Shown: in pieces, positions 1-14,206 of the stretch
Layout of the letters: the number at the start of each line of letters is the position of its first letter
Numbering within the stretch: the stretch's first letter is position 1
From: a virus
Lineage: Duplodnaviria > Heunggongvirae > Uroviricota > Caudoviricetes
DNA length: 14,206 nt
Strand: one strand, 5' to 3'
IMG/VR virus record: IMGVR_UViG_2609459844_000009
Coordinates: 1-14,206 of that record
Notes under the pieces: model-generated
Databases searched by the model: none
Told to the model about the DNA's origin: nothing
What the model saw: only the letters and a program-made list of their open reading frames with translations
Translations under genes and position numbers: made by a program

Positions 1-1155
1 ATGCTCACCGTTAAGCAGATTGAAGCAGCAAAGCCGAAAGAAAAACCATACCGCCTTCTCGATGGTAATGGCCTGTACCTTTATGTTCCTGTATCCGGGA
101 AAAAGGTATGGCAGCTTCGCTACAAGATTGACGGTAAGGAGAAAATCCTGACCGTCGGAAAATATCCGCTAATGACTTTGCAGGAGGCAAGAGATAAAGC
201 ATGGACCGCGAGGAAAGACATCTCGGTTGGCATCGATCCGGTAAAAGCGAAAAAGGCTTCGTCTAACAACAATTCCTTTAGTGCGATTTACAAGGAATGG
301 TACGAGCACAAGAAGCAAGTCTGGTCAGTAGGCTATGCAAACGAACTTGCCAAAATGTTTGACGACGACATTTTACCCATCATCGGCGGCCTTGAAATTC
401 AGGATATTGAGCCGATGCAACTGCTGGAAGTAATCCGCAGATTTGAAGATCGCGGTGCAATGGAGCGAGCCAACAAAGCCCGCAGAAGATGCGGAGAGGT
501 TTTCCGTTACGCTATTGTCACCGGAAGGGCTAAATATAACCCGGCACCTGACCTTGCAGACGCCATGAAAGGATACCGCAAGAAGAACTTCCCGTTTCTT
601 CCTGCAGACCAGATCCCGGCATTCAACAAAGCACTGGCAACATTTTCAGGAAGTATCGTATCGCTTATTGCGACTAAAGTTTTACGCTACACCGCCCTAA
701 GAACGAAAGAACTTCGTTCCATGCTATGGAAGAACGTCGATTTTGAAAACAGGATTATCACCATCGACGCCAGTGTGATGAAGGGTCGCAAGATTCATGT
801 AGTACCGATGTCAGACCAGGTAGTTGAACTTCTCACTACGCTAAGCTCAATCACCAAACCAGTATCAGAGTTTGTTTTTGCCGGGCGCAACGATAAGAAG
901 AAGCCAATCTGCGAGAACGCGGTGCTACTTGTGATCAAACAAATCGGCTATGAGGGTCTGGAAAGCGGTCACGGATTCAGGCATGAATTCAGCACGATTA
1001 TGAACGAGCACGAATGGCCTGCTGATGCTATTGAAGTGCAACTGGCACATGCCAACGGCGGATCTGTGCGCGGGATTTACAACCATGCTCAGTATCTCGA
1101 TAAACGCAGAGAAATGATGCAGTGGTGGGCGGACTGGATTGATGAAAAGGCGTGA
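1..1155 (+). CDS. intS: Tyrosine recombinase, P4-family prophage integrase (IntS-like, argW-targeting)
   Basis: 384-aa ORF starting at window position 1. N-terminal arm-binding region (KQIEAAKPKEKPYRLLDGNGLYLYV) typical of P4-type integrases; C-terminal catalytic signature HGFRHEF ... LAH ... RGIYNHAQY. Recalled as near-identical to E. coli KplE1/CPS-53 IntS. A TorI-like excisionase lies at the opposite end of the element, as in KplE1. Confidence 0.9.
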   Translation: MLTVKQIEAAKPKEKPYRLLDGNGLYLYVPVSGKKVWQLRYKIDGKEKILTVGKYPLMTLQEARDKAWTARKDISVGIDPVKAKKASSNNNSFSAIYKEWYEHKKQVWSVGYANELAKMFDDDILPIIGGLEIQDIEPMQLLEVIRRFEDRGAMERANKARRRCGEVFRYAIVTGRAKYNPAPDLADAMKGYRKKNFPFLPADQIPAFNKALATFSGSIVSLIATKVLRYTALRTKELRSMLWKNVDFENRIITIDASVMKGRKIHVVPMSDQVVELLTTLSSITKPVSEFVFAGRNDKKKPICENAVLLVIKQIGYEGLESGHGFRHEFSTIMNEHEWPADAIEVQLAHANGGSVRGIYNHAQYLDKRREMMQWWADWIDEKA

Positions 1156-1244
1156 TGCTTTCCATCTTTCCATTCGGATTCCTCCTACCAGATTTACCTG
1201 GAGAGTGATATAGTTAATCTTTTAAAAAGTTACATGGGCTTTGC

Positions 1245-3080
1245 ATGTCTTCTAAATTTAGGAATGATATTAATGGGCTAAGGGCTCTAGCGGTCGCAGC
1301 TGTTATTATATATCACTTTAATAGCTCTTATATGTCAAGCGGATTTGCAGGAGTGGATGTTTTTTTTGTTATCTCTGGATACCTGATGACATCCATAATA
1401 GTTAATAAATTCAATGATGGTAATTTCAAGCTTTTTGATTTCTACCTATCCAGAGCAAAAAGAATCATACCATCATTAATAATAGTCTGCTTTGCTCTGT
1501 TGATTTTTGGTTTTTTATTAATAGAACCTGGTACTTATCAGCTAATAGGTAAGCATTCGGCAAGCTCTCTTACATTCATATCAAACTTTACCTATCTATT
1601 TGAATCTGGATATTTCGACCAATCATCCAAAGAAAAGTTTTTGCTGCACACTTGGTCACTATCTGTTGAGTGGCAGTTCTACTTGATTTATCCATTTATA
1701 ATAATATCAATTTCTAAGCTGTTTGGCATAACAAGGCTGCGAGCGGCGCTAGCGTCTCTATCGGTGATTGGATTTATAATTTCTTTAATTATATCAAAAG
1801 AAGATATATCTTTATCTTACTATATGTTTTTTAGCAGAGCATGGGAGATGATAGTAGGTGGAGTTATTTTCTTGCTTCCATCAATAATGACGCAGACAAA
1901 GAGACTGACTTTAGAAATAATAGGGTGCATTGGTATAATATTATCATTTTTTGTTTTTACTGAACAAACGTTATGGCCGGGGACTCCAACTCTAATGCCT
2001 GTAATGTTCACTGCATTGGTTATATATGCTAATAATGAAAAATCAATTCTATCTGCAAGGCCAATTCAATTAATCGGTAAGATATCATATTCTATATACT
2101 TGGTGCATTGGGTAATATTAGTATCATTAAAAAAACTGTATATAGACTTTGGGTTTGCTGCATACCTGATATCAACATTAATGCTATCTTTTGCATTATA
2201 TCACTTTGTTGAAAAAAGGCGTAGCTTTGGGAAAATATGGGTTTATTTGTATGTTTTATGTTTTCTCATTTCGCTGGCCGTCTCCTTGAATGGAGTCAGA
2301 TCGCGAACAAGTGGGTCAGATGATTACAGAATGAGCCTTCAGGAGTTCAGAGACAAGTACGAAGGAAGTGATGGAGTAAAGGATAGCCTCAAACCTATCT
2401 TCTTCAACTCTAACGAAGATGACTTTGAATATATATTAATTGGAAGTAGCCATGCAAAGCACTATTACTCATATATAAAATCAAAAGGTTTGAAAGTGGT
2501 GTCGCTTGCGCTTGATGGGTGTAACTCAACAAAAAACAGGTATACCAACTACCGTCCGGAATCATGCGCCCCTCGCTATGATCAAGTGGTAAAATTCATC
2601 AATGACCATCCTGGCAAAAAGGTAGTTTGGGCTACTTTGTGGACTTGGGTTGGGATCCCTAGAGATAGCTCCAAAAATAATAATGAGAGTACTCTAGATG
2701 TGATAAATGAAGAAGTAACTGCATTTATAGGTGACATTAATAAATCAAATAGTGACATTTATCTTATAGGTGACGTTCCGGGCACTAAGAAACTAACATT
2801 TGAATGCATGGCTAAAAATTCGCTGCCTTTGAATAGATATTTCAATTTGGGCGGATGCAGTGACAAGCAAAAGTATGAGGACGATGGTGTTGATGCAACA
2901 CTATCATCCATAGCTAGAAAATATGATAACGTTCACTTTATAGGGGCTGCAAACTCCTTGTGCTCATCAGGTGAATGCATGTTGATATCTGAAGGTAAAC
3001 CAATTTATACAGATTATGGTCACCTTTCAAAATATGGTGCAAATATAGTCGGAAAGTATATATTCAGTAAAGTTAATTAA
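1245..3080 (+). CDS. O-antigen O-acyltransferase, acyltransferase-3 (AT3) membrane domain fused to C-terminal SGNH domain (OafA/Oac-like)
   Basis: 611-aa ORF. N-terminal AT3 hallmarks (GLRALAVAAVIIYHF with conserved Arg and His; VDVFFVISGY) and many predicted TM helices; C-terminal SGNH-like motifs (ILIGSSHAKHY; DYGHLS near the end). Very AT-rich versus neighbours, no strong SD. Occupies the slot where KplE1 carries gtrABC-like genes and Sf6 carries oac. Confidence 0.85.
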   Translation: MSSKFRNDINGLRALAVAAVIIYHFNSSYMSSGFAGVDVFFVISGYLMTSIIVNKFNDGNFKLFDFYLSRAKRIIPSLIIVCFALLIFGFLLIEPGTYQLIGKHSASSLTFISNFTYLFESGYFDQSSKEKFLLHTWSLSVEWQFYLIYPFIIISISKLFGITRLRAALASLSVIGFIISLIISKEDISLSYYMFFSRAWEMIVGGVIFLLPSIMTQTKRLTLEIIGCIGIILSFFVFTEQTLWPGTPTLMPVMFTALVIYANNEKSILSARPIQLIGKISYSIYLVHWVILVSLKKLYIDFGFAAYLISTLMLSFALYHFVEKRRSFGKIWVYLYVLCFLISLAVSLNGVRSRTSGSDDYRMSLQEFRDKYEGSDGVKDSLKPIFFNSNEDDFEYILIGSSHAKHYYSYIKSKGLKVVSLALDGCNSTKNRYTNYRPESCAPRYDQVVKFINDHPGKKVVWATLWTWVGIPRDSSKNNNESTLDVINEEVTAFIGDINKSNSDIYLIGDVPGTKKLTFECMAKNSLPLNRYFNLGGCSDKQKYEDDGVDATLSSIARKYDNVHFIGAANSLCSSGECMLISEGKPIYTDYGHLSKYGANIVGKYIFSKVN

Positions 3081-3087
3081 ACCAAGA

Positions 3088-3114
3088 CCCCTCAATCCTG
3101 AGGGGCTTTTTTTT
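3088..3114. terminator. Bidirectional rho-independent terminator between convergent acyltransferase and tailspike genes
   Basis: Hairpin CCCCTCA-atcc-TGAGGGG followed by T8 on the + strand; the tailspike stop codon overlaps the T tract on the other strand. Confidence 0.8.
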
Positions 3115-5347
3115 ACGCGGTTAATATCCAGCGCTTATCATAATAATGCATTAATCCTTGTGATGTTATTTTCATATGCACGATTGCTTGAGAAAAAGCG
3201 GCGGCAGCAAAACTTACCCTAAGAAATGTTTGTGAGCCGTTATTGTATTTAGATGTGGTAATGCCGGTTAGGTTTTTACTTCCAGCAATCATATTTGACC
3301 AAACATTACTTGAAGCTAAAGTGGCTTGATCTTTTGCTGATACGCTTACCAATATAACTCCACCGGTCTCACCAGTTCCGCCCAATCCATTCTGATTAAT
3401 TGGCATAATCTTTAACTCTGCTGCGATAAAACCCCCCCCCGTATATGAAGCTTCTTCACCAATCGTTGAAATAAGAATATCAATATTTCTTCCATATGGT
3501 ACCAAAACCGTCGCATCTTCAGTTAATACCTGAGTGTATGTGGCGTTTTTAGCTTGGTGTTTAGCGGAAAGAACCACACCATCAGAACCAGTTCGAAAGC
3601 CGATTCCAGTATGTTCCCCGTAGTATTTACCGTAATAATTTATTCCTCTGACGTCAAATTCTGAAATAGCACTTCCGGTTGTGTTTTTTACGAAAATGAA
3701 CTTATCACCGAAGGTGAAACCTCGGCACTGATATTTATTCGTTGGATCGGCAATGTTTTTAAGAAAGGAAATTCCCTTATAGGCTTTAACGTACCCACTT
3801 TCGAAACGAAAGTTCACAGGACCCTTTTGTTCATTTGCTGGTAATTCAACAAAATGAGTAACCGTGGCTCCGCTAGGGTCCTGAATCCAGCAGGAAATGT
3901 TCTCAACGGTTGCAACTGATTGGCCGTCCTCTTCATTGTAATCTGCAAAATCAAGAGCGTGCGTACCATTTATCCCTTCGATACCCATACCTTTGATAGA
4001 AAGAGAGCGGAATCCATAGAACTTATGAGGTAAAGAACAACCATCTGCAGCAATATTATTTACGGCAACGTACATTAATGGCCCCGGAGCCTTTACAGGT
4101 TCATAGGTTTCTCTATCAATCACAGCCCCCCAAAGATAACCAACACCACATTGCGAAGACCAAATTGCAGAGACATCAGTACTTGTTCCCCATATTGCAA
4201 ATCCGTATGTGCAATCATACATAAAAATATTTTGTATGACGCTGACAAATGGACACGATGGGAGCGCAAATTTATAATGGTAGAAGTCTATATTAGTTAG
4301 CTTCCAGTTCTTTCCGCCACCATACGTGGTGCTAGGACCACTTAGCAAAAGTGGACACCCTGTATATTCAGAGTCAGCGTTTCTGAAACCAATATTTTCA
4401 ATATGTAAATTATGACCCCATGAGGACATGTAAAAACCGCCATTTCCTGACGTATAAATCAAACTCTGCCTCGGGTTATCACCCTTAATATTTAAGGTGA
4501 TGCCTTCCCATCTAAACTGGCTAATGTCAATTTGAGTGTTACCAATATATATAGGCTGGTCTATAAAAATAGGAAGTTTAGTTAGATAAGCTTTATTAAG
4601 TGCTAATCCATCATTTGTTACACCTGTTAAATCGACGCCACCCATGCTTGGCGCTTTTGGGTAAGGCGTTCCCTGAATAGTACTTCCATCAATATAAGGA
4701 GCATCCATCCACGCTCCAAACATACGTGGTGTTACGTACCCCTTACCTTGAAGATCACGTTTCCAGCGTTTACCACCCACAGTGACAATGACCATGCCGT
4801 TATCATCTGCAGAAGTAGAATCTGTGAAATCGGCCACAAACAGACCACCACCAGTATCGCCTGATACTGTCGGCTTCATGCCTGTGGTGTGGAAGTCGAC
4901 GAAAATCTTTTGCTGATCTCGCTCAGGCTCAATTGTCCTTAACATTGCTATATCAGGGCATGTCCCGATGTATTTAAGACCGTCTTCCCCTGATAGAGAT
5001 ACTTTAAGCTGATCAGGATCATATTTAAGAACATTCGGAAAATAGAACTGCTGTGCACCATATGCATCATAAACAGCCATAGAATGGCCTTGCACAGTTA
5101 CGAATTTAGCAATCTGCCCATTATATACCGGATATCCAGCGGCGTTAATGATGATTGGTTGCGAAACAGGAATGTGAGAGCCATCTTCGTTCTCCACATA
5201 AACCTGAATCTGGTTTTCAGGATTTACCGGGTCAGTGTCAATTTTACCGATATAAATTTTGCCATTGGCTACGGCTTTAAAAGAACGAGCCATAGTGAAG
5301 AGTTGCGATGGCATACTCACTACAACATTGGCTGTAATGTCTGTCAT
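3113..5347 (-). CDS. Tailspike protein: P22 gp9-like N-terminal head-binding domain with divergent receptor-binding/enzymatic body
   Basis: 744-aa ORF. First ~110 residues ([11 protein letters not shown] ... [33 protein letters not shown] ... [12 protein letters not shown] ... NVLKYDPDQ) closely match the recalled P22 gp9 head-binding domain; the rest is unrelated to P22 gp9 by eye and Gly/Thr/Asn-rich as expected for a beta-helix. SD GGAG ~9 nt upstream of ATG. Confidence 0.85.
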
Positions 5348-5483
5348 TTAATTTGCTCCAGATGCAAGGAATCGCCGCAGCATGGCTACGGTTGGTATTT
5401 GTTTGGTTTTTGAACTACGAAAATTTCGTAGTGCTATCCATCAAGGCCATCGCCGCTTAGTTGCTGCGGTGAATTTTGGGCAT

Positions 5484-5506
5484 AAAAAAACCCAGCCGAA
5501 GCTGGG
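5484..5506 (-). terminator. Rho-independent terminator downstream of ant (minus strand)
   Basis: On the minus strand: CCCAGC-ttcg-GCTGGG followed by T7. Lies between the ant stop and the tailspike start, like the terminator after ant in the P22 immI operon. Confidence 0.75.
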
Positions 5507-5525
5507 TCGTTGCGTTGGTTATCTG

Positions 5526-6428
5526 TCAGTAGTTATGTACTGAAGGAGGTAATTCTTTATTCTTAAGTCTCATCCATGCGGAAAGATTCGTTGGTCCGTC
5601 TGGCTCATTGATATCAACATCTCGTGAGTGATTGATTAAAACGTCTCTCGCTATATCGATAATACGGGAGAACTCATAACCGCAGTCATGACATCTGCCG
5701 GAATAGTTCGATTGAATTTGTTTCAGCGCCGGATACAGTTCGCGGAATAATGCCTGTGAACGGTTAGCATAATCCCATAGCCATACAAGGCTGTTTGCTT
5801 CTTTTTCAGAAAGCTCGTTGGTTTTCTTCTCTTGTTTGCCGATGAACTCGCCTTCAAGCACTACCCTGTGGATGTACTCTACGGCTTGCGGTATCTGAGA
5901 TGCATCAAGCTCTTCAATACTTTCCACATTGAAACGCTGATGAATCATTGCATAAGCTTCTGGGTACATTAGATGCTTTTTGCTGACCAGCATATTTACA
6001 GCATCACGAAGCGGAGTCCTGTCATCAACAGATGTTTTCTTACGTGCATTTTCTGCCTTTCCCTTTGTCCAGTAGTCATGCAGCACAGTAAAGCATTCTT
6101 CCTGGTACTGAATCAGTTTATCGCGGATGTCAGCACGAACTTTCTCAGGGTTGATGCTGAACAGCCATCCATTTAACTTCTTCAAAGGAAGGCAGAGTAG
6201 CTTACGAAGCTTACCATCAGCGGCAACCATATTCATATGAATACAGTTGAACTTATCTAGTTGTTTCATAAGTTTTTGTTGCTGAGTACCCCAGCTCATT
6301 CCGAGGTTTTCAACGATTGGCTTCATCGCAACATATGCAACTCCGGCAGCCATGGCGGTGATAATCTGCTGACCATTGAAAGGCACGTAAGAGGTGTTCA
6401 CTGCTTCTAAAATTGCTATACTATTCAT
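5526..6428 (-). CDS. ant: Antirepressor Ant (P22 immI-type)
   Basis: Start chosen at the internal ATG ([22 protein letters not shown]...) preceded by GGAGA; 300 aa, the length of P22 Ant. Position (arc ... ant, then tailspike, same strand) matches P22 immI. The ORF-track start at 6458 is a TTG without an SD. Confidence 0.8.
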
Positions 6429-6490
6429 GTTGGTTTTTCTCCAAGGATTTACCGACAACCGAAGCCCTGACTGTTACCGCAGTTGGGGCT

Positions 6491-6760
6491 TCAACGTTTT
6501 TCCACTTCATTTTGAATTTGCTTAAGTAGCATATTTGTCTCGTCAAGCCTCTTGTTAATACGGTCAAGGCTTTCTACTAAATCGTTATGTGCATGTGATA
6601 CTTCGTAATTTGAGACTGATTTCTTTTCCTCTATCGTCTTTGTCAATCGTTCCCCTGATTGATACATATTGATTAACGATGTAAAAATCACGAGCAAGCA
6701 AACTACAATGATTGCGCCAGACAAAAATTGTAAAGAACGATCAAGCAATGACACCTTCAT
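6491..6760 (-). CDS. Small membrane-anchored coiled-coil protein, function unknown (inserted between arc and ant)
   Basis: 89 aa with one N-terminal hydrophobic helix (LQFLSGAIIVVCLLVIFTSLI) then a charged helical region. Start ATG overlaps the arc stop (ATGA) and is preceded by GAGGGG, indicating translational coupling to arc. P22 has no gene at this position as far as I recall. Confidence 0.65.
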   Translation of the reverse strand: MKVSLLDRSLQFLSGAIIVVCLLVIFTSLINMYQSGERLTKTIEEKKSVSNYEVSHAHNDLVESLDRINKRLDETNMLLKQIQNEVEKR

Positions 6761-6909
6761 ACCGTAATCCCCTCTCTCTTCAGACTGTCCAGCAATCGCT
6801 TAATCACTTCCGAGTTAAACGACCGGCATTCTTCTTTGGCCTTTCCTGTAATCGCATCTTTTAGCGACTGAGGCATTCTCACCAAAATTCTGCTAACTTC
6901 TTTTTCCAT
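6757..6909 (-). CDS. arc: Arc-like ribbon-helix-helix repressor
   Basis: 50 aa from the internal ATG (MEKEVSRILVRMPQSLKDAITGKAKEECRSFNSEVIKRLLDSLKREGITV); aligns with recalled P22 Arc (RxPxxLxDxxxxxAxEExRSxNSE ... KxEG). Divergent from mnt. Confidence 0.8.
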   Translation of the reverse strand: MEKEVSRILVRMPQSLKDAITGKAKEECRSFNSEVIKRLLDSLKREGITV

Positions 6910-7018
6910 ATCGCCACCACGTGAGTTATTGTGAATCACAAACATATCACCGTGACTATATCAAGTCAAAATTTTTTTGAATACACTGTGATATCAATGT
7001 GATTATCACGGTGTAAGT
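6910..7018. promoter_or_regulatory. immI divergent promoter/operator region between arc and mnt
   Basis: Contains CACGTG (6917-6922), TGTGAATCACA (6930-6940), ATCACCGTGAC (6946-6956) and its inverted partner ATCACGGTGTA (7005-7015), and the perfect palindrome TGATATCA (6988-6995). The CACCGTG/CACGGTG core resembles the centre of the recalled P22 Mnt operator (CCACGGTGG). Confidence 0.6.
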
Positions 7019-7273
7019 ATGACGAAGGTTAGAGACATAGCCCCATATAGCGTAAGAATGCCAGATAGCCTCAAGCGCGACCTGACCATAAGAGCATCGA
7101 AAAACGGACGCTCATTAAATTCAGAAATAGTTATGATCTTGCAAGCTGCTATTGATGAAGAAAAATCACCAAGATCAATAGAAGGTTTTGCTCAACAAGA
7201 ATCTGAAAAATTTAGGGAGGCTCTTCTTAAGACTCTCAGCAGCATGTACGGAGAAGATAAAAAACCCACCTGA
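7019..7273 (+). CDS. mnt: Mnt-like ribbon-helix-helix repressor
   Basis: 84 aa; N-terminal RMPDSLKRDLTIRASKNGRSLNSEIV matches the recalled P22 Mnt RHH motif (RMPxxxxxxLxxRAxxNGRSxNSE). Divergent from arc. Confidence 0.8.
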   Translation: MTKVRDIAPYSVRMPDSLKRDLTIRASKNGRSLNSEIVMILQAAIDEEKSPRSIEGFAQQESEKFREALLKTLSSMYGEDKKPT

Positions 7274-7285
7274 CGGTGGGTTTTT
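7259..7285. terminator. Bidirectional rho-independent terminator shared by mnt and the convergent 330-aa gene
   Basis: A6 - CCCACC-tgac-GGTGGG - T5; the mnt stop codon lies in the loop and the stop of the minus-strand gene (7287) abuts the T tract. Confidence 0.8.
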
Positions 7286-7286
7286 C

Positions 7287-8279
7287 TTATTCTTTATCTT
7301 TTAAGTCTATGGTTCTTTGCCCAATAACCTTTTCATCTATGTATTTCTCATACTCTTCTCGAGTATCAGAAACCATTGCAATACCAGTAACCTTACCTAT
7401 TTGGGTTCTAAGAGCCTTAACTCCAACCTCTGATAAAAACTGGTGTATTTTATCGTTTTTGCTGCCTTTCTCTTCTTTTGAAGTTTTTGCTAAATTAAAT
7501 ACCTTTCCTTCACTTCTGGCTAATGGGTAATAAATGTGATCTATCGTAAGATATTTAAACGCCCATGGTCGCCCTCTAACTGGTTTGTCTATACCATACA
7601 AACGATACCAATGCTCATAAAGTTCAGGGGTGAACTCTCTTTCATACTCACGAGCCTCTTCAGCAACATATCGCTTATATGCTTGAATTACCTCTTCTTT
7701 TGTTCTGTCATACCCTGCCAAAGCATAAACAAGCCCCTGAATGCCCGCCTTGGCTGATGCATCAATAATGATTCTGGCTTGCTTAGCAATCCCTTCCTGA
7801 CTGGAAAGCAACTTACCTTCAGCTTTAGCATTAGAGATTGCTCGACATAAATCAATTAATATTGTTACATCGTAGCCATGTATTACAGGATTAGCTGGAG
7901 TGTTCGTGCCCGCCTGTTTGTATTGAAAAATAAGAGGATTTTCAAGTTTTGCCCTTAATTCATGCCCAATATACTGAGAAATAGTTTTCCCCTGAATAAA
8001 CTTTGGCAACCTGCTGCCACCTTCGCCAAGACCAATCGCTTCTCCCATGCCTCTCTGGCTAATAACGGCAGTTTTGTTATCATCATTTAACACATAGCAC
8101 TCAACATCAATCCCGAATTCATGCTGGAACGATCCCTTATGCGTGGCAATTAATGGTTTATCCTTCCATCTTGCAGCCGCTGCTTTCTTTGCTATTTCAG
8201 AACGCTGCTCTTTAGTCAGCGACTTTGCGCGAGCGATCCCGCCCTTAGCTTTCCCTTCACTACTTTTCTTTTCTGTCAT
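7287..8279 (-). CDS. Hypothetical protein with Lys/Ala-rich basic N-terminal tail; unknown function, possible DNA-binding regulator or exclusion/defence factor
   Basis: 330-aa ORF (MTEKKSSEGKAKGGIARAKSLTKEQRSEIAKKAAAARWKDK...). AGGTG ~9 nt upstream of ATG; TTGCTT-18 bp-TATAAT sigma70-like promoter on the minus strand (+ strand 8312-8341). AT-rich relative to early genes. I could not assign a family; there is a vague resemblance to phage Bro-N/P63C-type regions that I cannot substantiate. Confidence 0.75.
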   Translation of the reverse strand: MTEKKSSEGKAKGGIARAKSLTKEQRSEIAKKAAAARWKDKPLIATHKGSFQHEFGIDVECYVLNDDNKTAVISQRGMGEAIGLGEGGSRLPKFIQGKTISQYIGHELRAKLENPLIFQYKQAGTNTPANPVIHGYDVTILIDLCRAISNAKAEGKLLSSQEGIAKQARIIIDASAKAGIQGLVYALAGYDRTKEEVIQAYKRYVAEEAREYEREFTPELYEHWYRLYGIDKPVRGRPWAFKYLTIDHIYYPLARSEGKVFNLAKTSKEEKGSKNDKIHQFLSEVGVKALRTQIGKVTGIAMVSDTREEYEKYIDEKVIGQRTIDLKDKE

Positions 8280-8434
8280 AATGCAAGCACCTTGTTGTGA
8301 TATATGCTTGCATTATATACACTGTACACACATACAAGCAAGCATAAAAACAAAACAAAATGCTTGCATTACAACCGCGCTACTCCAACTACACATTATC
8401 ATCTGGTATCCTGCACAAAACTAAGGAGGTTGGT
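8280..8434. promoter_or_regulatory. Divergent promoter region with four copies of the 10-bp palindrome ATGC(AA/TT)GCAT (putative operator array)
   Basis: Sites at 8281-8290 (ATGCAAGCAc), 8304-8313 (ATGCTTGCAT), 8336-8345 (AAGCAAGCAT) and 8360-8369 (ATGCTTGCAT); centre-to-centre spacings ~23, 32 and 24 bp. They overlap the RBS/start, -10 and -35 of the 330-aa gene's predicted promoter. Confidence 0.6.
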
Positions 8435-8764
8435 GTGCTTGAATGGTTTCTGTTGGCTGCATTAGTCGTTTCTGGTTTGGTGTATGAGTATCGAATGCAC
8501 TCTCTAACAAAAAAAATAGGAATTCTAGAAAACGAATATTGTGCTCTCAAATCCTCACTGGAACGTGAGCAAGGGGACTTAAAAATCTCTCTGTCTAGCA
8601 TTGAGCGTTCTATAGAGAGCTTAGAGGATAAGGTTGATCGTATAAAGAATGAGGATATTCATGATATTAAGGACGACATATCCTTCTTAAAATCTTGGTT
8701 GAAAAATGTTGGGAAAATTGCCACATCAACACGAGATAAGCTCAATCCATCCATGGATGACTAA
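8435..8764 (+). CDS. Small membrane-anchored coiled-coil protein, function unknown
   Basis: GTG start 5 nt after a perfect AGGAGG SD (8424-8429); ~109 aa with N-terminal hydrophobic helix (LEWFLLAALVVSGLVY) then a charged heptad-like helical region. AT-rich. The upstream ATG at 8360 lies inside operator site 4 with no SD, so I prefer the GTG. Confidence 0.55.
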   Translation: MLEWFLLAALVVSGLVYEYRMHSLTKKIGILENEYCALKSSLEREQGDLKISLSSIERSIESLEDKVDRIKNEDIHDIKDDISFLKSWLKNVGKIATSTRDKLNPSMDD

Positions 8765-9016
8765 TTACTCCTGTGCCATTCCGCTTAGCGATGCCACAAT
8801 TCCAGCTCTTGCTAAACGCTGGAACTCTTCGTTTCCTAGTGCCTCGCGTATTGCTTTTACGGCGGCCTTATTTGCCATAAATCTGCGTTCCGCCGCCGCT
8901 AATGCACCATCACTTGCCCCAACCTTAACTGCCTTTGTTGCCTCTTGAACAGCCTTTTCAATAGCGTAACGACCGCTTCTAGTTGCGGATAATTTCGCTA
9001 TCGCTCCTTTTGCCAT
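8765..9016 (-). CDS. Ala-rich small ORF, possibly the C-terminal remnant of a larger (late/ejection-type?) gene
   Basis: 83 aa from the first ATG, but the frame stays open upstream to ~9142 with no start codon and no convincing SD, suggesting a 5'-truncated remnant. Its stop codon abuts the stop of the convergent gene at 8764. Confidence 0.3.
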   Translation of the reverse strand: MAKGAIAKLSATRSGRYAIEKAVQEATKAVKVGASDGALAAAERRFMANKAAVKAIREALGNEEFQRLARAGIVASLSGMAQE

Positions 9017-9061
9017 TGCATCAATTGCCCCACCTGCAGCGCCAACGGGCCATACGCGCCA

Positions 9062-9556
9062 GTTATTTCTATTGGGGCAGTATTCTTTGACCCGAATACC
9101 GGAGAAACAGGAGAAGAGTTCTCGGTAAATATCTCGCTTGAGTCATCAATGCGATATCGGGCGCGTCCTGACGCTTCAACGATTTTATGGTGGCTGGAAC
9201 AGAGTGAAGAAGCCAGAAAATCGCTAACCAGCAACACTCAGGAGCTTTCAACGGCTCTTTCATGGTTATCTGAATTCATCATAAAGAACGCTAACCACAA
9301 ATTCGTTCAGGTTTGGGGGAATGGAGCATCATTTGACTGCGTTATTCTCCGCAACAGTTATTCGCTGACAGGGCAGCCAGTTCCGTGGCAGTGGTGGAAT
9401 GACCGCGACGTAAGAACAATCGTCGAACTTGGGAAGGTAATAGGATTCGACCCTAAGCGAGATATGCCATTCAAAGGAACTCGCCACAACGCGCTTGATG
9501 ATGCCATTCACCAAGCCAAATACGTTTCAGCGATCTGGAAAAAGTTAGCTAAATAA
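9062..9556 (+). pseudogene. DnaQ/DEDD-like 3'-5' exonuclease (Rv2179c-like phage exoribonuclease family), 5'-truncated
   Basis: Frame is open from 8903; first ATG at 9149. Translation from ~9062 (VISIGAVFFDPNTGETGEEFSVNI ... WWLEQSEEARKSL ... VQVWGNGASFDCVILRNS ... GTRHNALDDAIHQAKYV) matches this family as I recall it, including the motif III H-x4-D. The expected N-terminal DxE motif (I.D.ET.G) is absent in all three forward frames upstream. Confidence 0.5.
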
Positions 9557-9572
9557 TCAACAGGAGAAAACC

Positions 9573-9866
9573 ATGCCAGCGCCTCTGTATGGTGCGGATG
9601 ACGCGCGCCGCTGTTCCGGCAATTCCGTATCGGAGGTGCTGGATAAATTCAGAAGAAACTACGATCGGATAATGTCGCTACCACAGGAAACGAAAGAGGA
9701 AAAGGAATTTCGCCACTGTATATGGCTTGCAGAGAAAGAAGAACGCGAGCGAATTTACCAGACATCAATCCGACCATTCCGCAAAGCCACATATACCCAC
9801 TTCCCTGAAATTGACCCGCGCCTGCGTAATTACCGCTCACGCTATGGCGCTATCAGTAATGACTGA
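9573..9866 (+). CDS. Hypothetical phage early-region protein
   Basis: 97-aa ORF with GGAGA SD 7 nt upstream of ATG; tightly packed same-strand gene array. Confidence 0.6.
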   Translation: MPAPLYGADDARRCSGNSVSEVLDKFRRNYDRIMSLPQETKEEKEFRHCIWLAEKEERERIYQTSIRPFRKATYTHFPEIDPRLRNYRSRYGAISND

Positions 9867-9876
9867 GGAATTAACA

Positions 9877-10167
9877 ATGAAAACAATGAAGCTAAACATC
9901 GACCTCGGCAAATACGTTATTACCGGAACCAAACACGACCTGATTCTTAATGAAAGAGGAATTATCAAAGAAGGTGAGAATGCAGGGAAAGAAACACTAA
10001 GCCGTATCGGTTATTACAGCAAGTTTGAGCATCTGGTCAAAGAGTTATGCAACCGTGAAATCCTGTTATCTCAGGCGCAGACGCTACAGGATATTCAGCA
10101 GCATATCGAAACTTTAGGTATGTCACTTAGCATGGCTATTGACCAGTTCGTTGAGAGTAAATCATGA
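9877..10167 (+). CDS. Hypothetical phage early-region protein
   Basis: ATG ([13 protein letters not shown]...) 6 nt after GAGGAA, immediately after the upstream stop; the longer ORF-track start at 9727 overlaps the previous gene and is less likely. Confidence 0.6.
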
Positions 10168-10331
10168 GAGGACTTGCATACAATCCCGGCATTCTTCCGG
10201 CAGAAATGATTATTCGCCAACGCGTAAAGCCAATGCCATCGAGAGAGGAATTGCTTAAAAGAAAGAGTTTCGGTTCTGTTAATGACAACAAATATCTGAA
10301 TGCTATGTGGCGCAAAGGAGGCAACCAGTGA
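10164..10331 (+). CDS. Small hypothetical protein (55 aa)
   Basis: ATG overlaps the upstream stop (ATGA) and its own stop overlaps the next gene's GTG start (GTGA), suggesting translational coupling. Below the ORF-track size cutoff. Confidence 0.4.
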
Positions 10332-10582
10332 GTAATTCAGCACGACTACAGCTTGGTTTTTCACCGCTATCAAAAACTATCATGCTGGCAAAAATGCGCG
10401 ATGTTGAAGGTGGACGTATGCGCGTTGGCAATGATCCAGGTCGTGATGTTACCAATGAGGCTGCTCAATTGGTGTGGCGACTGGTCATGGCTGAAGGTGG
10501 TGAGATCGCGCGGGAGCTGGATGATGGTTCTCGCATGGTGTTGAAGGCAGAAAAGCAGGAGGCAACCAGTGAGCCAGATTGA
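10328..10582 (+). CDS. Hypothetical phage early-region protein
   Basis: GTG start 6 nt after AGGAGG; the same 17-nt SD-plus-start block (AGGAGGCAACCAGTGAG) recurs at the start of the next gene. Confidence 0.55.
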
Positions 10583-11012
10583 TTATCAGGCACTGCGTGC
10601 TAAGGCAGAAAAAGCAACGTGTGGCGAGTGGTCGCTCGAATATGGAGAGGGCCGATTTGATGGTGATGATGCGCTAATTCATCGCGAGGCTGCTGGATAT
10701 ATTCCTATTTGCAGAATTGAAGGAGCGCATCCAGAAAGCGGTTTCGATGAAGATTTCCAAATGGAACAGCAGGCCAATGCTGAATTCATCGCCGCAGCCA
10801 ATCCGGCTACCGTGCTGACACTGCTGGACGAGCTGGAAGCAGCAAAAAAGCGCATTGCAGAACTGGAAGCACGGGAAATATCGCTCCCAGAACGTAGCAG
10901 CATGCTTCATCGAACAGATTTTCACGAGGATTACCAAACGGTAATGGCATACAAAGTTTCTGAGGTCATCGCTGCAATCCGCGCCGCTGGCATTCGCATC
11001 AAAGGAGAGTGA
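10569..11012 (+). CDS. Ead/Ea22-like early protein
   Basis: 147 aa; GTG start after AGGAGG. Contains the AANPATVL.LLDELEAA...RIAELE segment that I recall as characteristic of Ead/Ea22-like proteins of lambdoid and P22-like prophages. Confidence 0.55.
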   Translation: MSQIDYQALRAKAEKATCGEWSLEYGEGRFDGDDALIHREAAGYIPICRIEGAHPESGFDEDFQMEQQANAEFIAAANPATVLTLLDELEAAKKRIAELEAREISLPERSSMLHRTDFHEDYQTVMAYKVSEVIAAIRAAGIRIKGE

Positions 11013-11013
11013 G

Positions 11014-11205
11014 ATGAACGGACAAATCTCAATTGTTCGACCGGGAGCATGTGACGATCGCGAGATACGAATGATTATTCGTCTGGCGATGGGGAAAACA
11101 ATAACAGCTCTCATTACTCCAGAAAATCTCGCATTAGCTTTAACCGGAAAGTCAGACCTGCCAGTGGAGCTAAAACTGCGAAATGTTGAGATTAAGGTGA
11201 AATAG
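11014..11205 (+). CDS. Small hypothetical protein (63 aa)
   Basis: ATG 1 nt after the upstream stop; fills the gap in the same-strand operon. Confidence 0.45.
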   Translation: MNGQISIVRPGACDDREIRMIIRLAMGKTITALITPENLALALTGKSDLPVELKLRNVEIKVK

Positions 11206-11207
11206 CC

Positions 11208-11822
11208 ATGACCACTATTACCAAAGAACGTATTGAATTGTTCATTAAAGATCCGCTTGAAAACGGGCTTACTCGTGGCGAACAAATGGAACTGGCACGA
11301 ATTGCACTGGCATCACTGGAACGCGAACAGATTCGCCACGAGCATGCCAAATGGTCTGACTCCACATTTGGCTGCGTTGGCCCCATTGGTCCGCTGAAAC
11401 ATCTCTCAAAAGAGGCTCTGGAAGCCGCAGCCGAACCTGACGATCTCAGCGAGTGGGCTGATATGCAGTTCCTGTTGTGGGATGCACAGCGCCGTGCTGG
11501 TATCAGTGATGCTGAAATTACCGCTGCTATGGAAGATAAATTGAAGATCAACATGAAGCGCCAGTGGCCTGAACCAAAAGATGGTGAGCCTCGCTTGCAC
11601 ATTAAAGAACCCGGCAACTCTCCGGTAACTCCGGATGGTTGGATAAGCTGTAGTGAGCGAATGCCAAGCGAAGAAGATGTTTTGGTTTATTGCTCAGACA
11701 CAAAAGAGCAGATGGTAGGGTTTCACAAAGGTAAAGGGTTATTTCAATTCTTTTACATGAATGGTGTTGAGGGGGTATGTGAGCCGTCACACTGGATGCC
11801 GCTACCAGAGCCTCCACTTTGA
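11208..11822 (+). CDS. DUF550/DUF551-type prophage protein (MazG-like dATP/dGTP pyrophosphohydrolase-type N-terminal region, DUF551 C-terminus)
   Basis: 204 aa; the C-terminus (...CEPSHWMPLPEPPL) matches the recalled DUF551 ending (HWMPLPEPP); the N-terminal region resembles the DUF550 module often fused to it. Confidence 0.5.
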   Translation: MTTITKERIELFIKDPLENGLTRGEQMELARIALASLEREQIRHEHAKWSDSTFGCVGPIGPLKHLSKEALEAAAEPDDLSEWADMQFLLWDAQRRAGISDAEITAAMEDKLKINMKRQWPEPKDGEPRLHIKEPGNSPVTPDGWISCSERMPSEEDVLVYCSDTKEQMVGFHKGKGLFQFFYMNGVEGVCEPSHWMPLPEPPL

Positions 11823-11919
11823 AAGCGAAGCTTATACATATCTTTTACATCAGCAATCTATTGTTAATCTCCAATCAATGTTACGTTGTCATCTCACTCA
11901 TGCTTTGGAGGTAGTGATA

Positions 11920-12098
11920 TGTCTTGTCCAAAATGCGGTTCTGGAAATATTGCAAAAGAAAAAACAATGCGTGGATGGTCTGGTGATTATGTGTGCTGCG
12001 ATTGCGGATACAACGACTCTAAAGACGCATTTGGAGAGCGTGGTAAAAACGAGTTTGTTAAAATTAATAAAGAACGCGAAGGCAACGAAAAAAGCTAA
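11920..12098 (+). CDS. Small zinc-ribbon protein
   Basis: 59 aa from the ATG 7 nt after GGAGG (MSCPKCGSGNIAKEK ... CCDCGYND): two Cys pairs in C-x2-C ... C-x-C arrangement. The longer track ORF (11886) lacks an SD. Confidence 0.55.
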
Positions 12099-12163
12099 TT
12101 TATTTATTCATATATTAAAACAATGTAACCAATATTCGAATTGAAGAACTGAAAGAACACCAA

Positions 12164-12184
12164 GCCGCCTGATGGCGGTTTTTT
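12164..12184 (+). terminator. Rho-independent terminator ending the early-gene array
   Basis: GCCGCC-tgat-GGCGG followed by T6. Confidence 0.7.
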
Positions 12185-12194
12185 ATTGCCTGAT

Positions 12195-12210
12195 TTGCAG
12201 GTTCGATTCC
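12195..12210 (+). other. tRNA-Arg (argW) T-arm-derived 16-nt fragment just upstream of torI
   Basis: TTGCAGGTTCGATTCC matches the T-stem/T-loop part of E. coli argW as I recall it (...AATTGCAGGTTCGATTCCTGCAGGGGACACCA); similarity ends at 12211. Confidence 0.5.
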
Positions 12211-12229
12211 CTATTCGGAGATAGCACTC

Positions 12230-12430
12230 ATGCAACACGAACTACAACCTGATTCACTGGTTGATTTGAAATTCATCATGGCTGATACTGGCTTCGGTAA
12301 GACCTTCATCTATGACCGGATTAAGTCCGGCGACCTGCCAAAAGCCAAAGTTATCCACGGGCGAGCAAGATGGTTATATCGTGACCATTGTGAATTCAAA
12401 AATAAGCTCTTAAGCCGCGCCAATGGGTAA
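12230..12430 (+). CDS. torI: Excisionase / recombination directionality factor, TorI-like (AlpA/Xis family winged-helix)
   Basis: 66 aa (MQHELQPDSLVDLKFIMADTGFGKTFIYDRIKSGDLPKAKVIHGRARWLYRDHCEFKNKLLSRANG), recalled as matching KplE1 TorI. It sits at the opposite end of the prophage from int and next to the att remnant, as in KplE1. Confidence 0.8.
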   Translation: MQHELQPDSLVDLKFIMADTGFGKTFIYDRIKSGDLPKAKVIHGRARWLYRDHCEFKNKLLSRANG

Positions 12431-12503
12431 AATAGCGGGTAAAATATTTCTCACATCTAAAAAACACCATTCCAATCAATCCCCTGCTGCTTCAAGTAGA
12501 TGT

Positions 12504-12518
12504 CTGCAGGGGACACCA
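12504..12518 (+). other. argW 3'-terminal fragment (…CTGCAGGGGACACCA): candidate attR core / right prophage boundary
   Basis: Exact 15-nt match to the recalled 3' end of tRNA-Arg argW including the CCA end, with no upstream tRNA body; non-coding host-like DNA follows. Confidence 0.6.
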
Positions 12519-12958
12519 GATACCCTTCAAACGAAATCTACCTTCACCCCGTAAAAGATAGGTTTGGCAGCACACTTGCCTTATATCTACTCATTTTTAC
12601 TGCAACAGGTTGAAATCTCAGCACTGTCAGAAAGCGCTGATGACTAAACAGCCCTGGGCCGGGCGATGTAACCATCACACAGAATCCTGATAGCGAAATA
12701 TGGCGTGACTCGATACTTCACTCCGCAATGCATTCCTTGATGAATTCGCAGGACCGTGATACACGGGACAGGTCGCTGAATGACGACAATGTCCTGGAAA
12801 TCAGCGAACCGCGCATCTGAAGTACATTTGAGCGACTGTACCAGAACATGAATGAGGCGTTTGGATTAGGTGATTATTAGCAGGGCTAAGCACTTTAGTA
12901 TTATTATTTTCCGGTTGAGGGATAGGGAGATATCGACAACAACCGGAAAAGTTTACGT

Positions 12959-14206
12959 CTATATTGCTGAAGGTACAGGCGTTTCCATAACTATTTGCTC
13001 GCGTTTTTTACTCAAGAAGAAAATGCCAAATAGCAACATCAGGCAGACAATACCCGAAATTGCGAAGAAAACTGTCTGGTAGCCTGCGTGGTCAAAGAGT
13101 ATCCCAGTCGGCGTTGAAAGCAGCACAATCCCAAGCGAACTGGCAATTTGAAAACCAATCAGAAAGATCGTCGACGACAGGCGCTTATCAAAATTTGCCA
13201 CGCTGTATTTGAAGACGGATATGACACAAAGTGGAACCTCAATAGCATGTAACAGCTTCACTAATGAAATAATCCAGGGGTTAACGAACAGCGCGCAGGA
13301 AAGGATACGCAACGCCATAATCACAACACCGATAAGTAATGCATTTTTTGGCCCTACCCGATTCACAAAGAAAGGAATAATCGCCATGCATAGCGCTTCG
13401 AGTACCACCTGGAATGAGTTGAGATAACCATACAGGCGCGTTCCTACATCGTGTGATTCGAATAAACCTGCATAAAAGACAGGAAAAAGTTGTTGATCAA
13501 AAATGTTATAGAAAGACCACGTCCCCACAATAAATATGACGAAAACCCAGAAGTTTCGATCCTTGAAAACTGCGATAAAATCCTCTTTTTTTACCCCTCC
13601 CGCATCCGCCGCTACGCACTGGTGATCCTTATCTTTAAAACACATGTTGATCATCATAAATACAGCGCCAAATAGCGAGACCAACCAGAAGTTGATATGG
13701 GGACTGATACTAAAAAATATGCCGGCAAAGAACGCGCCAATAGCATAGCCAAAAGATCCCCAGGCGCGCGCTGTTCCATATTCGAAATGAAAATTTCGCG
13801 CCATTTTTTCGGTGAAGCTGTCAAGCAAACCGCATCCCGCCAGATACCCCAGGCCAAAAAAGAGCGCCCCCAGAATTAGACCTACAGAAAAATTGCTTTG
13901 CAGTAACGGTTCATAAACGTAAATCATAAACGGTCCGGTCAAGACCAGGATGAAACTCATACACCAGATGAGCGGTTTCTTCAGACCGAGTTTATCCTGA
14001 ACGATGCCGTAGAACATCATAAATAGAATGCTGGTAAACTGGTTGACCGAATAAAGTGTACCTAATTCCGTCCCTGTCAACCCTAGATGTCCTTTCAGCC
14101 AAATAGCGTATAACGACCACCACAGCGACCAGGAAATAAAAAAGAGAAATGAGTAACTGGATGCAAAACGATAGTACGCATTTCTGAATGGAATATTCAG
14201 TGCCAT
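12959..14206 (-). CDS. cscB: Sucrose:H+ symporter, LacY-family MFS permease (CscB)
   Basis: 415-aa ORF with 12-TM MFS architecture; N-terminus (MALNIPFRNAYYRFASSYSFLFFISWSLWWSLYAIWLKGHLGL) recalled as E. coli CscB. The csc locus is known to lie next to argW in sucrose-positive E. coli. The window ends exactly at its start codon. Confidence 0.85.
   Translation of the reverse strand: MALNIPFRNAYYRFASSYSFLFFISWSLWWSLYAIWLKGHLGLTGTELGTLYSVNQFTSILFMMFYGIVQDKLGLKKPLIWCMSFILVLTGPFMIYVYEPLLQSNFSVGLILGALFFGLGYLAGCGLLDSFTEKMARNFHFEYGTARAWGSFGYAIGAFFAGIFFSISPHINFWLVSLFGAVFMMINMCFKDKDHQCVAADAGGVKKEDFIAVFKDRNFWVFVIFIVGTWSFYNIFDQQLFPVFYAGLFESHDVGTRLYGYLNSFQVVLEALCMAIIPFFVNRVGPKNALLIGVVIMALRILSCALFVNPWIISLVKLLHAIEVPLCVISVFKYSVANFDKRLSSTIFLIGFQIASSLGIVLLSTPTGILFDHAGYQTVFFAISGIVCLMLLFGIFFLSKKREQIVMETPVPSAI

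Follow-up and report, generated by a model that had tools for sequence, protein, structure and literature searches.

The closest described relatives of the locus reported here are the argW prophages KplE1 (CPS-53) of Escherichia coli K-12, HK620, Sf6 and Kapi1, for which the attachment core was published as a 16-nt duplication (PMC2951348) and a duplication of 16-17 bp of the argW 3' end was reported (PMC8787464). The TorI sites mapped in this system lie on attL and have the cores GTTCG, GATCG and GTCCG (PMC2951348), and in vitro excisive recombination with the integrase IntS, the excisionase TorI and integration host factor (IHF) works on an attR of 135 bp (PMC3509656). The control of torI expression is an acknowledged gap, PtorI being described as 'non-characterized' (PMC2951348). 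Here we analysed a stretch of 14,206 nt (positions 1 to 14,206 of the IMG/VR virus record IMGVR_UViG_2609459844_000009; hereafter the window), in which torI lies between two matches to argW. The downstream match is the textbook attR core of the HK620/Sf6/KplE1 system, and the upstream match, a second copy of the argW T-loop region in the excisionase leader, has apparently not been described.

Two matches to argW flank torI

The features on which the analysis turns are the following.

12195..12210, + strand: 16-mer TTGCAGGTTCGATTCC, equal to argW nt 46-61
12201..12211, + strand: conserved core of the upstream element, GTTCGATTCCC, found throughout the module family some 28 nt before the excisionase start codon
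12217..12222, + strand: torI Shine-Dalgarno (SD) sequence GGAGAT, conserved across leaders
12230..12430, + strand: torI (hkaC in HK620, gene 18 in Sf6), encoding the excisionase, a recombination directionality factor (RDF) of 66 aa; from the list of open reading frames (ORFs) and the RefSeq annotation of matching genomes
12504..12518, + strand: 15-mer CTGCAGGGGACACCA, the attR core, equal to argW nt 61-75

The argW sequence, taken from K-12 and from E. coli B7A, ends in ...GGGCTAATTGCAGGTTCGATTCCTGCAGGGGACACCA. The 16-mer spans two nucleotides of the variable region, the 5' strand of the T-stem and the T-loop and reaches two nucleotides into the 3' strand of the T-stem; in argW it abuts the 15-mer, with nt 61 common to both. 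Neither of the two has a further occurrence in the window at up to three mismatches. A chance origin was ruled out, as only about 4e-4 exact argW 16-mers are expected in DNA of this size and the longest exact argW match in 300 first-order Markov shuffles of the window was at most 13 nt. An earlier note, made from the letters alone, had reported two pieces matching the argW 3' half with torI between them, and this was confirmed (nt 46-61 and nt 61-75, with torI at 12230-12430); the argW sequence on which it relied agrees with the genes of K-12 and B7A. As it also supposed, argW and attL lie outside the window, since ARAGORN found no tRNA gene there. The torI product is 100% identical to TorI/HkaC.

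Elsewhere in the window, the minus strand carries a 12-nt exact match to the argW D-arm at 6167-6178 (AGTTAAATGGAT, argW nt 9-20). This match is at chance level: the longest argW match reached at least 12 nt in 26 of the 300 shuffled windows.

The upstream element travels with the phage module and is conserved in excisionase leaders

The 16-mer is identical in the free phages HK620 and Sf6, in KplE1 of K-12 and in the window. We therefore hold with high confidence that it is phage DNA, the E. coli form of an element, (CAG)GTTCGATTCC(C), that moves as part of the xis-attP-int module. Because the 16-mer is present in free phage genomes, it is not the scar of a second integration in this chromosome, and a strain-specific relic or a tandem integration was ruled out by its occurrence in the virion genomes of HK620 and Sf6. 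Among the origins offered by the earlier note, the relic of an earlier or tandem integration can thus be dismissed and the ancestral attP feature is upheld; absence of the 16-mer from related attR regions, which the note would have taken as a sign of a fortuitous match, is contradicted by its identity in HK620, Sf6 and KplE1. The crossover/overlap sequence TGCAGGG is not part of the 16-mer, which ends in ...TTCC and is followed by CTATTCG.

Excisionase homologues were gathered from genomes, phage records and viral contigs, and 64 distinct leaders, picked by excisionase protein homology alone (down to 39% identity), were scored for the best match to GTTCGATTCC between -50 and -9. A perfect match was found in 31 of the 64 leaders, six had one mismatch (always the same GATTTCC variant), one had three, and the remaining 26 had four to five, which is the level of shuffled sequences. 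The distribution is bimodal, with at most one mismatch in 37/64 leaders against 0.16% of shuffles. Besides E. coli, the element lies upstream of TorI homologues in prophages of Enterobacter, Citrobacter, Serratia, Pantoea, Edwardsiella and Hafnia. It is also present in Salmonella phage g341c and Erwinia phage phiEt88, whose excisionases are 52% and 39% identical, respectively, and 38 of the 58 distinct leaders in the clade of these two phages carry it. Erwinia phage Midgardsormr38 (record L104, positions 2155-2186) has tandem copies, CAGGTTCGATTCCCGT and CAGGTTCGATTCCCAC, with a 16-nt period directly upstream of the xis SD sequence.

What is conserved in the relatives is the block GTTCGATTCC(C), with variable nucleotides on its 5' side: those preceding GTTCG read CCAG, CCCT, CTCA, CCAA, ACAG or CTAG. 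The 5-nt spacer before the SD sequence is variable as well, and in most lineages 7 nt separate ...TTCC from GAGAT. Across the E. coli modules sampled, the 16-mer is altered in one leader variant only, reading GGTTAGATT, and the base after it, 12211, is polymorphic (TTCCC or TTCCA). A leader either has the element intact or has different sequence in its entire place; this is what purifying selection would be expected to produce, and it points to such selection.

A pattern scan of viral contigs for GGTTCGATTCC followed by an SD sequence and ATG returned mostly real tRNA genes; among the matches listed, three were leaders of the TorI family and none belonged to another excisionase family. When distant P4-like integrase modules were compared to see whether the leader motif follows a different target tRNA, no second T-loop copy was found in Pseudomonas VW-6S, Yersinia YeP5, Acinetobacter AM106 or Klebsiella Kp4866-6, in which the arrangements differ.

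The attP core adjoins a putative half-site derived from the T-loop

The downstream 15-mer is the known attR crossover core of prophages of the HK620/Sf6/KplE1 type, so that one of the two pieces is, as the earlier note proposed, the true core. An attP core is annotated at this position in the HK620 and Sf6 records, and in K-12 it is the pseudogene pawZ. Homology to the free HK620 and Sf6 genomes ends exactly at 12518, where csc-type host DNA begins. The 15-mer is identical to the 3' end of the target tRNA through CCA, and the attL copy of the core sits in an intact tRNA gene beside int in B7A and K-12. The sequence around it can be divided as follows.

12495..12504, + strand: candidate C core-type half-site AGTAGATGTC, on the phage side, assigned from the GATGTC/GACACC inverted symmetry around TGCAGGG
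12505-12511, + strand: putative overlap region TGCAGGG, part of the attR core
12512-12518, + strand: putative B' half-site GACACCA, part of the attR core
12425-12433 and 12437-12445, + strand: two direct GGGTAAAAT repeats, putative IntS arm-type sites of the P arm

Positions 12495-12518 read AGTAGATGTC, TGCAGGG and GACACCA, with GATGTC and GACACC forming an imperfect inverted repeat around the 7-bp candidate overlap. From this we infer a core composed of C (GATGTC), overlap O (TGCAGGG) and C'/B' (GACACC), C and C' being the imperfect inverted repeat. In the attP of relatives, the 10 bp directly left of the overlap are ATTCGATGTA, ATTAGGTGTC or ATTAGATGTC, followed by TGCAGGG, and argW itself reads GTTCGATTCC and then TGCAGGG; the putative C half-site of attP is a diverged copy of the T-loop region. 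The same GGGTAAAA/TTTTACCC repeats as in the P arm are present in the P' arm of attL, and the g341c clade has GGGCATA in place of GGGTAAAA-type arm repeats. P' arm-type sites have TAAA in common (PMC2951348).

Since attP has its own diverged T-loop copy beside the core, torI did not split one tRNA fragment. We conclude with high confidence that the upstream element is a second copy of the T-loop/T-arm region of argW, separate from the copy in the C half-site, and the earlier picture of two complementary pieces of one 3' half parted by torI has to be given up. The exact abutment of the two pieces in E. coli is then partly a coincidence. Within the TorI clade the element follows the pattern TTNCAGGTTCGATTCCC. 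In Serratia and Pantoea modules the T-arm match continues to CCTG, overlapping the first core nucleotides, and the Edwardsiella element is a full hairpin, GACAGG-TTCGATTC-CCTGTC.

The abutment at argW nt 61 in E. coli is the natural argument for a functionless scar, according to which an ancestral attP had the contiguous argW 3' half, from T-arm to CCA, and a segment made up of torI and the P arm was later inserted at the boundary between half-site and overlap, which left the T-arm piece stranded upstream. Many tRNA-targeting phages do carry a contiguous tRNA 3' half in attP, and a contiguous T-arm-to-CCA attP exists in the same integrase superfamily, as in Kp4866-6 with its ssrA-type 3' end. 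The element also lies at a mosaic junction, and it is often absent and hence dispensable. However, a neutral 11-mer is not expected to stay unchanged across excisionases of 39-52% identity while the spacer and the upstream flank diverge, and its all-or-none distribution lacks graded decay. Moreover, the T-loop-derived C half-site is already present beside the core, and the overlap of the Serratia and Pantoea T-arm match with the first core nucleotides indicates a duplication without a split. The un-split joint, with the leader fused directly to the core, was not seen in any of 5426 E. coli genomes; a recombination event linking the pieces was likewise rejected, as no natural deletion joining the leader T-arm to the core occurs in these genomes. 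A scar is therefore unlikely.

The element is dispensable for excision in vitro and unchanged when excisionase specificity changes

The published minimal substrate can be placed on the window by one of its primers.

12408..12427, + strand: left end of the 135-bp attR, primer attR-IHF2, CTCTTAAGCCGCGCCAATGG (primer from PMC3509656, matched to the sequence by eye)

The 135-bp attR thus starts 197 bp to the right of the 16-mer and does not contain the element. Because this attR suffices, we state with high confidence that the element is dispensable for excision in vitro.

The pentamer GTTCG nevertheless invites the view that the element is an operator at which TorI, the RDF, regulates its own synthesis. 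The published attL sites often have CAG before the GTTCG, GATCG or GTCCG core (PMC2951348; attL sequence), and the element contains CAGGTTCG, with GTTCG at 12201-12205. A second GTTCG or GTCCG follows 12 nt downstream in several TorI-clade leaders (L009, L016, L017), the element is in tandem in Midgardsormr38, and as of 2010 neither the torI promoter nor its regulation had been characterised (PMC2951348). We compared the recognition helix of the RDF with the repeats of the P' arm next to the int promoter in HK620 (L001) and in records L104, L107, L108, L244, L248, L250, L256, L273 and L285. RDFs with the helix GKTF go with repeats of the GTTCG type, G(T/A)TC(G/T); those with T(S/A)KY go with RTTACC, RT(T/A)ACC; and those with TDRY go with inverted CGAAC, (C/A)GAAC. 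The co-varying repeats number four to five and stand beside the -35 of the int promoter, in the stretch that separates int from the att core. Here an RDF and its sites have clearly switched specificity in concert inside a single family of modules.

The element takes no part in this change. It is the same with all three helix/repeat types and with either arm site (GGGTAAAA or GGGCATA), and its constancy while the excisionase sites and the integrase arm sites switch argues against a TorI operator. In particular, GTTCGATTCC is unchanged where the helix and the P' arm repeats have become RTTACC or inverted CGAAC, and its conservation runs over ATTCC(C), which is not common to the attL sites I1-I5. 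An autoregulatory TorI site, at first attractive for its GTTCG, was downgraded on this co-variation and is now quite unlikely. The suggestion that the layout of the two pieces matters for TorI binding or for excision likewise finds no support, given that the 135-bp attR suffices, that the mapped TorI sites are on attL and that the element does not co-vary with RDF specificity.

A possible mimic of the attB left half-site

The element core is identical to the left (B) half-site of attB, GTTCGATTCC, which adjoins the overlap region in argW. The identity extends over 10/10 positions to the GTTCGATTCC that abuts TGCAGGG in argW, the half-site assignments themselves being inferred, and the C half-sites and the element have TTNGRT in common. 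The constants in all modules that bear the element would be the target tRNA, argW, and the core sites O (TGCAGGG) and B' (GACACCA). Because the conserved block is the 10-11 bp adjoining the overlap in attB, and because only the target tRNA and the core sites stay constant, we tentatively prefer, at less than even odds, the possibility that the element is an integrase core-type half-site mimicking the left half of attB. The core-binding and catalytic domains of the integrase would then read it as DNA, in the manner of the attB left half-site, and half-site identity would account for the E. coli block ending where the core begins.

IntS is made constitutively, at a low level, in lysogens (PMC2951348). 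An integrase protomer bound at the element, and hence beside the ribosome-binding site of xis, could act as a roadblock or as an operator and keep read-through expression of the excisionase low in lysogens. Alternatively, the element could take part in integration as an accessory site of the attP intasome.

Several observations weigh against the half-site mimic. About 40% of leaders, including those of the isolated phages Chronis and EhrS_49, do without the element, which can be accessory at most, since it is so often absent. The common GATTTCC variant has an inserted T that would shift the half-site relative to the downstream DNA. The element has neither the overlap TGCAGGG nor an inverted partner; the GAGATA downstream of it is the SD sequence and matches GACAYC at 4/6 positions. 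A lone core-type half-site is normally bound weakly by tyrosine integrases. Furthermore, the tRNA form GATTCC is always retained in the element, with no drift toward GRTGTC, the putative C/C' consensus of the integrase. Finally, the 11-mer is a plain T-loop, and any T-loop-recognising factor or RNA process would fit its invariance across modules equally well.

Another reading is at the RNA level, in which GUUCGAUUCC in the xis mRNA would serve as a weak anti-SD sequence (UUCC/GGAG), or as a T-loop mimic for enzymes like TruB and TrmA, and would tune translation or mRNA stability. The element has a fixed place immediately 5' of the SD sequence with fixed spacing, RNAalifold pairs UUCC with GGAG in 14/14 leaders tested, and a fuller T-arm hairpin is possible in Edwardsiella (GACAGG...CCTGTC), Serratia (CAGG...CCTG) and phiEt88 (GCTAGG...CCCAGC). 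However, the consensus structure has only 4 bp at -1.68 kcal/mol, with compensatory changes in 0/4 pairs, an anti-SD role accounts for UUCC and not for GUUCGA, and the T-stem is unconserved, with at most 2-3 bp in E. coli and the g341c clade. Rfam returned nothing at the element with an E-value below 0.3 and nothing tRNA-like. A conserved RNA structure was accordingly rejected, the 4-bp UUCC/GGAG helix being all that RNAalifold recovers, without compensatory change and without an Rfam match. A long-range split T-stem between the leader GCAGG and the core (U)CUGC was rejected by inspection, because the T-stem 5' nucleotides vary without matching changes in the core. We regard an RNA leader element as improbable.

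That the T-loop copy mimics the attB left half-site so that the integrase gates its own excisionase or builds an extended attP intasome, or, alternatively, that it is a T-loop RNA mimic in the xis leader, is in our view rather doubtful.

The annotated integration promoter and the surroundings of the element

The only existing annotation of this stretch is a promoter, mapped onto the window from the HK620 record.

12185-12223 (window equivalent), + strand: putative integration promoter pI of the HK620 GenBank record
12186..12198, + strand: TTGCCTGATTTGC, equivalent of the 'cII protein' site of the HK620 record, within putative pI

On this annotation the element would be part of a CII-activated integration promoter, the 16-mer supplying its spacer and the DNA near the -10. 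The HK620 record marks the equivalent of 12185-12223 as 'promoter, phage integration' with the cII site at 12186-12198, and pI is annotated in Sf6 by homology. However, the TTGC repeats are N5 apart and not N6 as in the CII sites of lambda, TTAC replaces the first TTGC in K-12 and in roughly one third of E. coli modules, other genera that retain the element lack the second repeat, and modules in non-lambdoid settings, where the DNA upstream is unrelated, have the element too. No sigma-70-like promoter or hexamer pair was predicted at the element. The CII/pI promoter was rejected on its spacing, on a TTGC pattern that is unconserved outside E. coli and on the absence of sigma-70-like hexamers, and we consider this reading very unlikely.

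The remaining features lie to either side of the torI region.

12162..12189, + strand: intrinsic terminator after the Eag gene, from a terminator scan (hairpin AAGCCGCC-TGAT-GGCGGTTT, then a T run)
12423-12554, + strand: 43-aa ORF overlapping the end of torI and crossing the attR core, counterpart of HK620 hkaB and Sf6 gene 17
12519..14206, no strand assigned: host flank of a csc-type strain, which departs from K-12 and from the phages right after ...CCA
12959-14206, - strand: cscB, an oligosaccharide transporter of the major facilitator superfamily, from the ORF list

The prophage is P22-like, of the HK620/Sf6 type, and sits in argW of a csc-positive E. coli; the window covers its right end together with its early-left and immunity region. 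B7A, the closest complete genome, and many O104:H4 genomes match the window at about 99%. In B7A the opposite prophage end is about 39.5 kb away, with an intact argW followed by intS. The csc sucrose locus at 12519-14206 stands where K-12 has dsdC; the argW-dsdCXA region is a known variable island. The 43-aa ORF at 12423-12554, whose 3' part is host DNA here, is probably not a real gene.

The terminator is strong and lies immediately upstream of the element; it closes the Eag mosaic module, and the integration module follows directly on its right. The Eag homology with Sf101, HK629 and P22-like phages of Salmonella extends no further than 12188-12192, and the hairpins differ among E. coli variants, with TTTTTATTGCCTGATTTGCAGG common to them. 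A separate observation concerns KplE1, in which the DNA upstream of torI (K-12 record L003, 10180-10260; the ypdJ region, ...CAGCCTCACACTCGATGAGGCCTGT...) is shared with the DNA upstream of the excisionase in g341c (L107, 2090-2140). This shared DNA is another mosaic joint ending just before the T-loop element. Two contigs labelled 'Actinomycetes bacterium MAG' (L010) and 'Parachlamydiaceae MAG' (L023) bear typical enterobacterial torI modules with the argW core and are probably mis-binned or contaminant.

Implications for the control of torI

The KplE1/HK620/Sf6 module is a model for the control of integrase and excisionase when attP lies between their genes, and a strongly conserved 11-nt element before torI, identical to an attB half-site, is an easily mutated candidate for the missing control point of torI. 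We found no mention of a conserved T-loop copy in an excisionase leader in the open literature that was searched, and a full-text search for the motif string returned eukaryotic tRNA-vector papers only. If integrase gating or an extended intasome, or a T-loop RNA mimic, were true, the element would add a new regulatory component to a well-studied recombination module, and in the case of integrase gating core-type recognition would double as a regulatory operator. If the element is functionless, the finding shrinks to the known attR core and a curiosity. The case also cautions that a tRNA-like fragment close to an att site need not be the scar of a past integration.

Comparison with known systems

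The attR core agrees with those of KplE1/CPS-53, HK620, Sf6 and Kapi1 in sequence, in its place after torI and in its host junction (PMC2951348; PMC8787464). It differs in the length of its identity to attL, which is 15 nt in the window (...CCAg) compared with 16-17 nt in the known system and 16 nt in K-12 (...CCAT), because the host flank belongs to a csc-type strain. The 'pI' of HK620 and Sf6 with its cII site (GenBank AF335538, AF547987) occupies the same coordinates as the element, but its defining TTGC-N6-TTGC is absent and unconserved, and the annotation is older than the recognition of hkaC as an excisionase gene. With the TorI sites I1-I5 on attL (PMC2951348) the element shares the pentamer GTTCG and the CAG before it, whereas it lies on the attR side, 5' of torI, is conserved over 11 nt rather than 5-7, and stays constant when RDF specificity changes.

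In its sequence the element resembles the core-type half-sites of lambda-type systems (B, B', C and C'), as it consists of the same 10-11 bp as the putative B of attB(argW) and ends where an overlap would begin; unlike them, it is solitary, without overlap region or partner half-site. To our knowledge, an accessory core-type site far out in the P arm is known for none of lambda, P4 and KplE1. Phages and islands that target tRNA genes have tRNA 3'-end segments in attP, by which the tRNA gene is restored upon integration. Like these segments, the element is phage-borne sequence derived from a tRNA, and it is oriented like the core. In contrast to them, it stands some 300 bp away from the crossover, has no overlap region and does not become joined to the tRNA when the phage integrates, and it duplicates the T-loop, a part 5' of the crossover that the phage need not supply.

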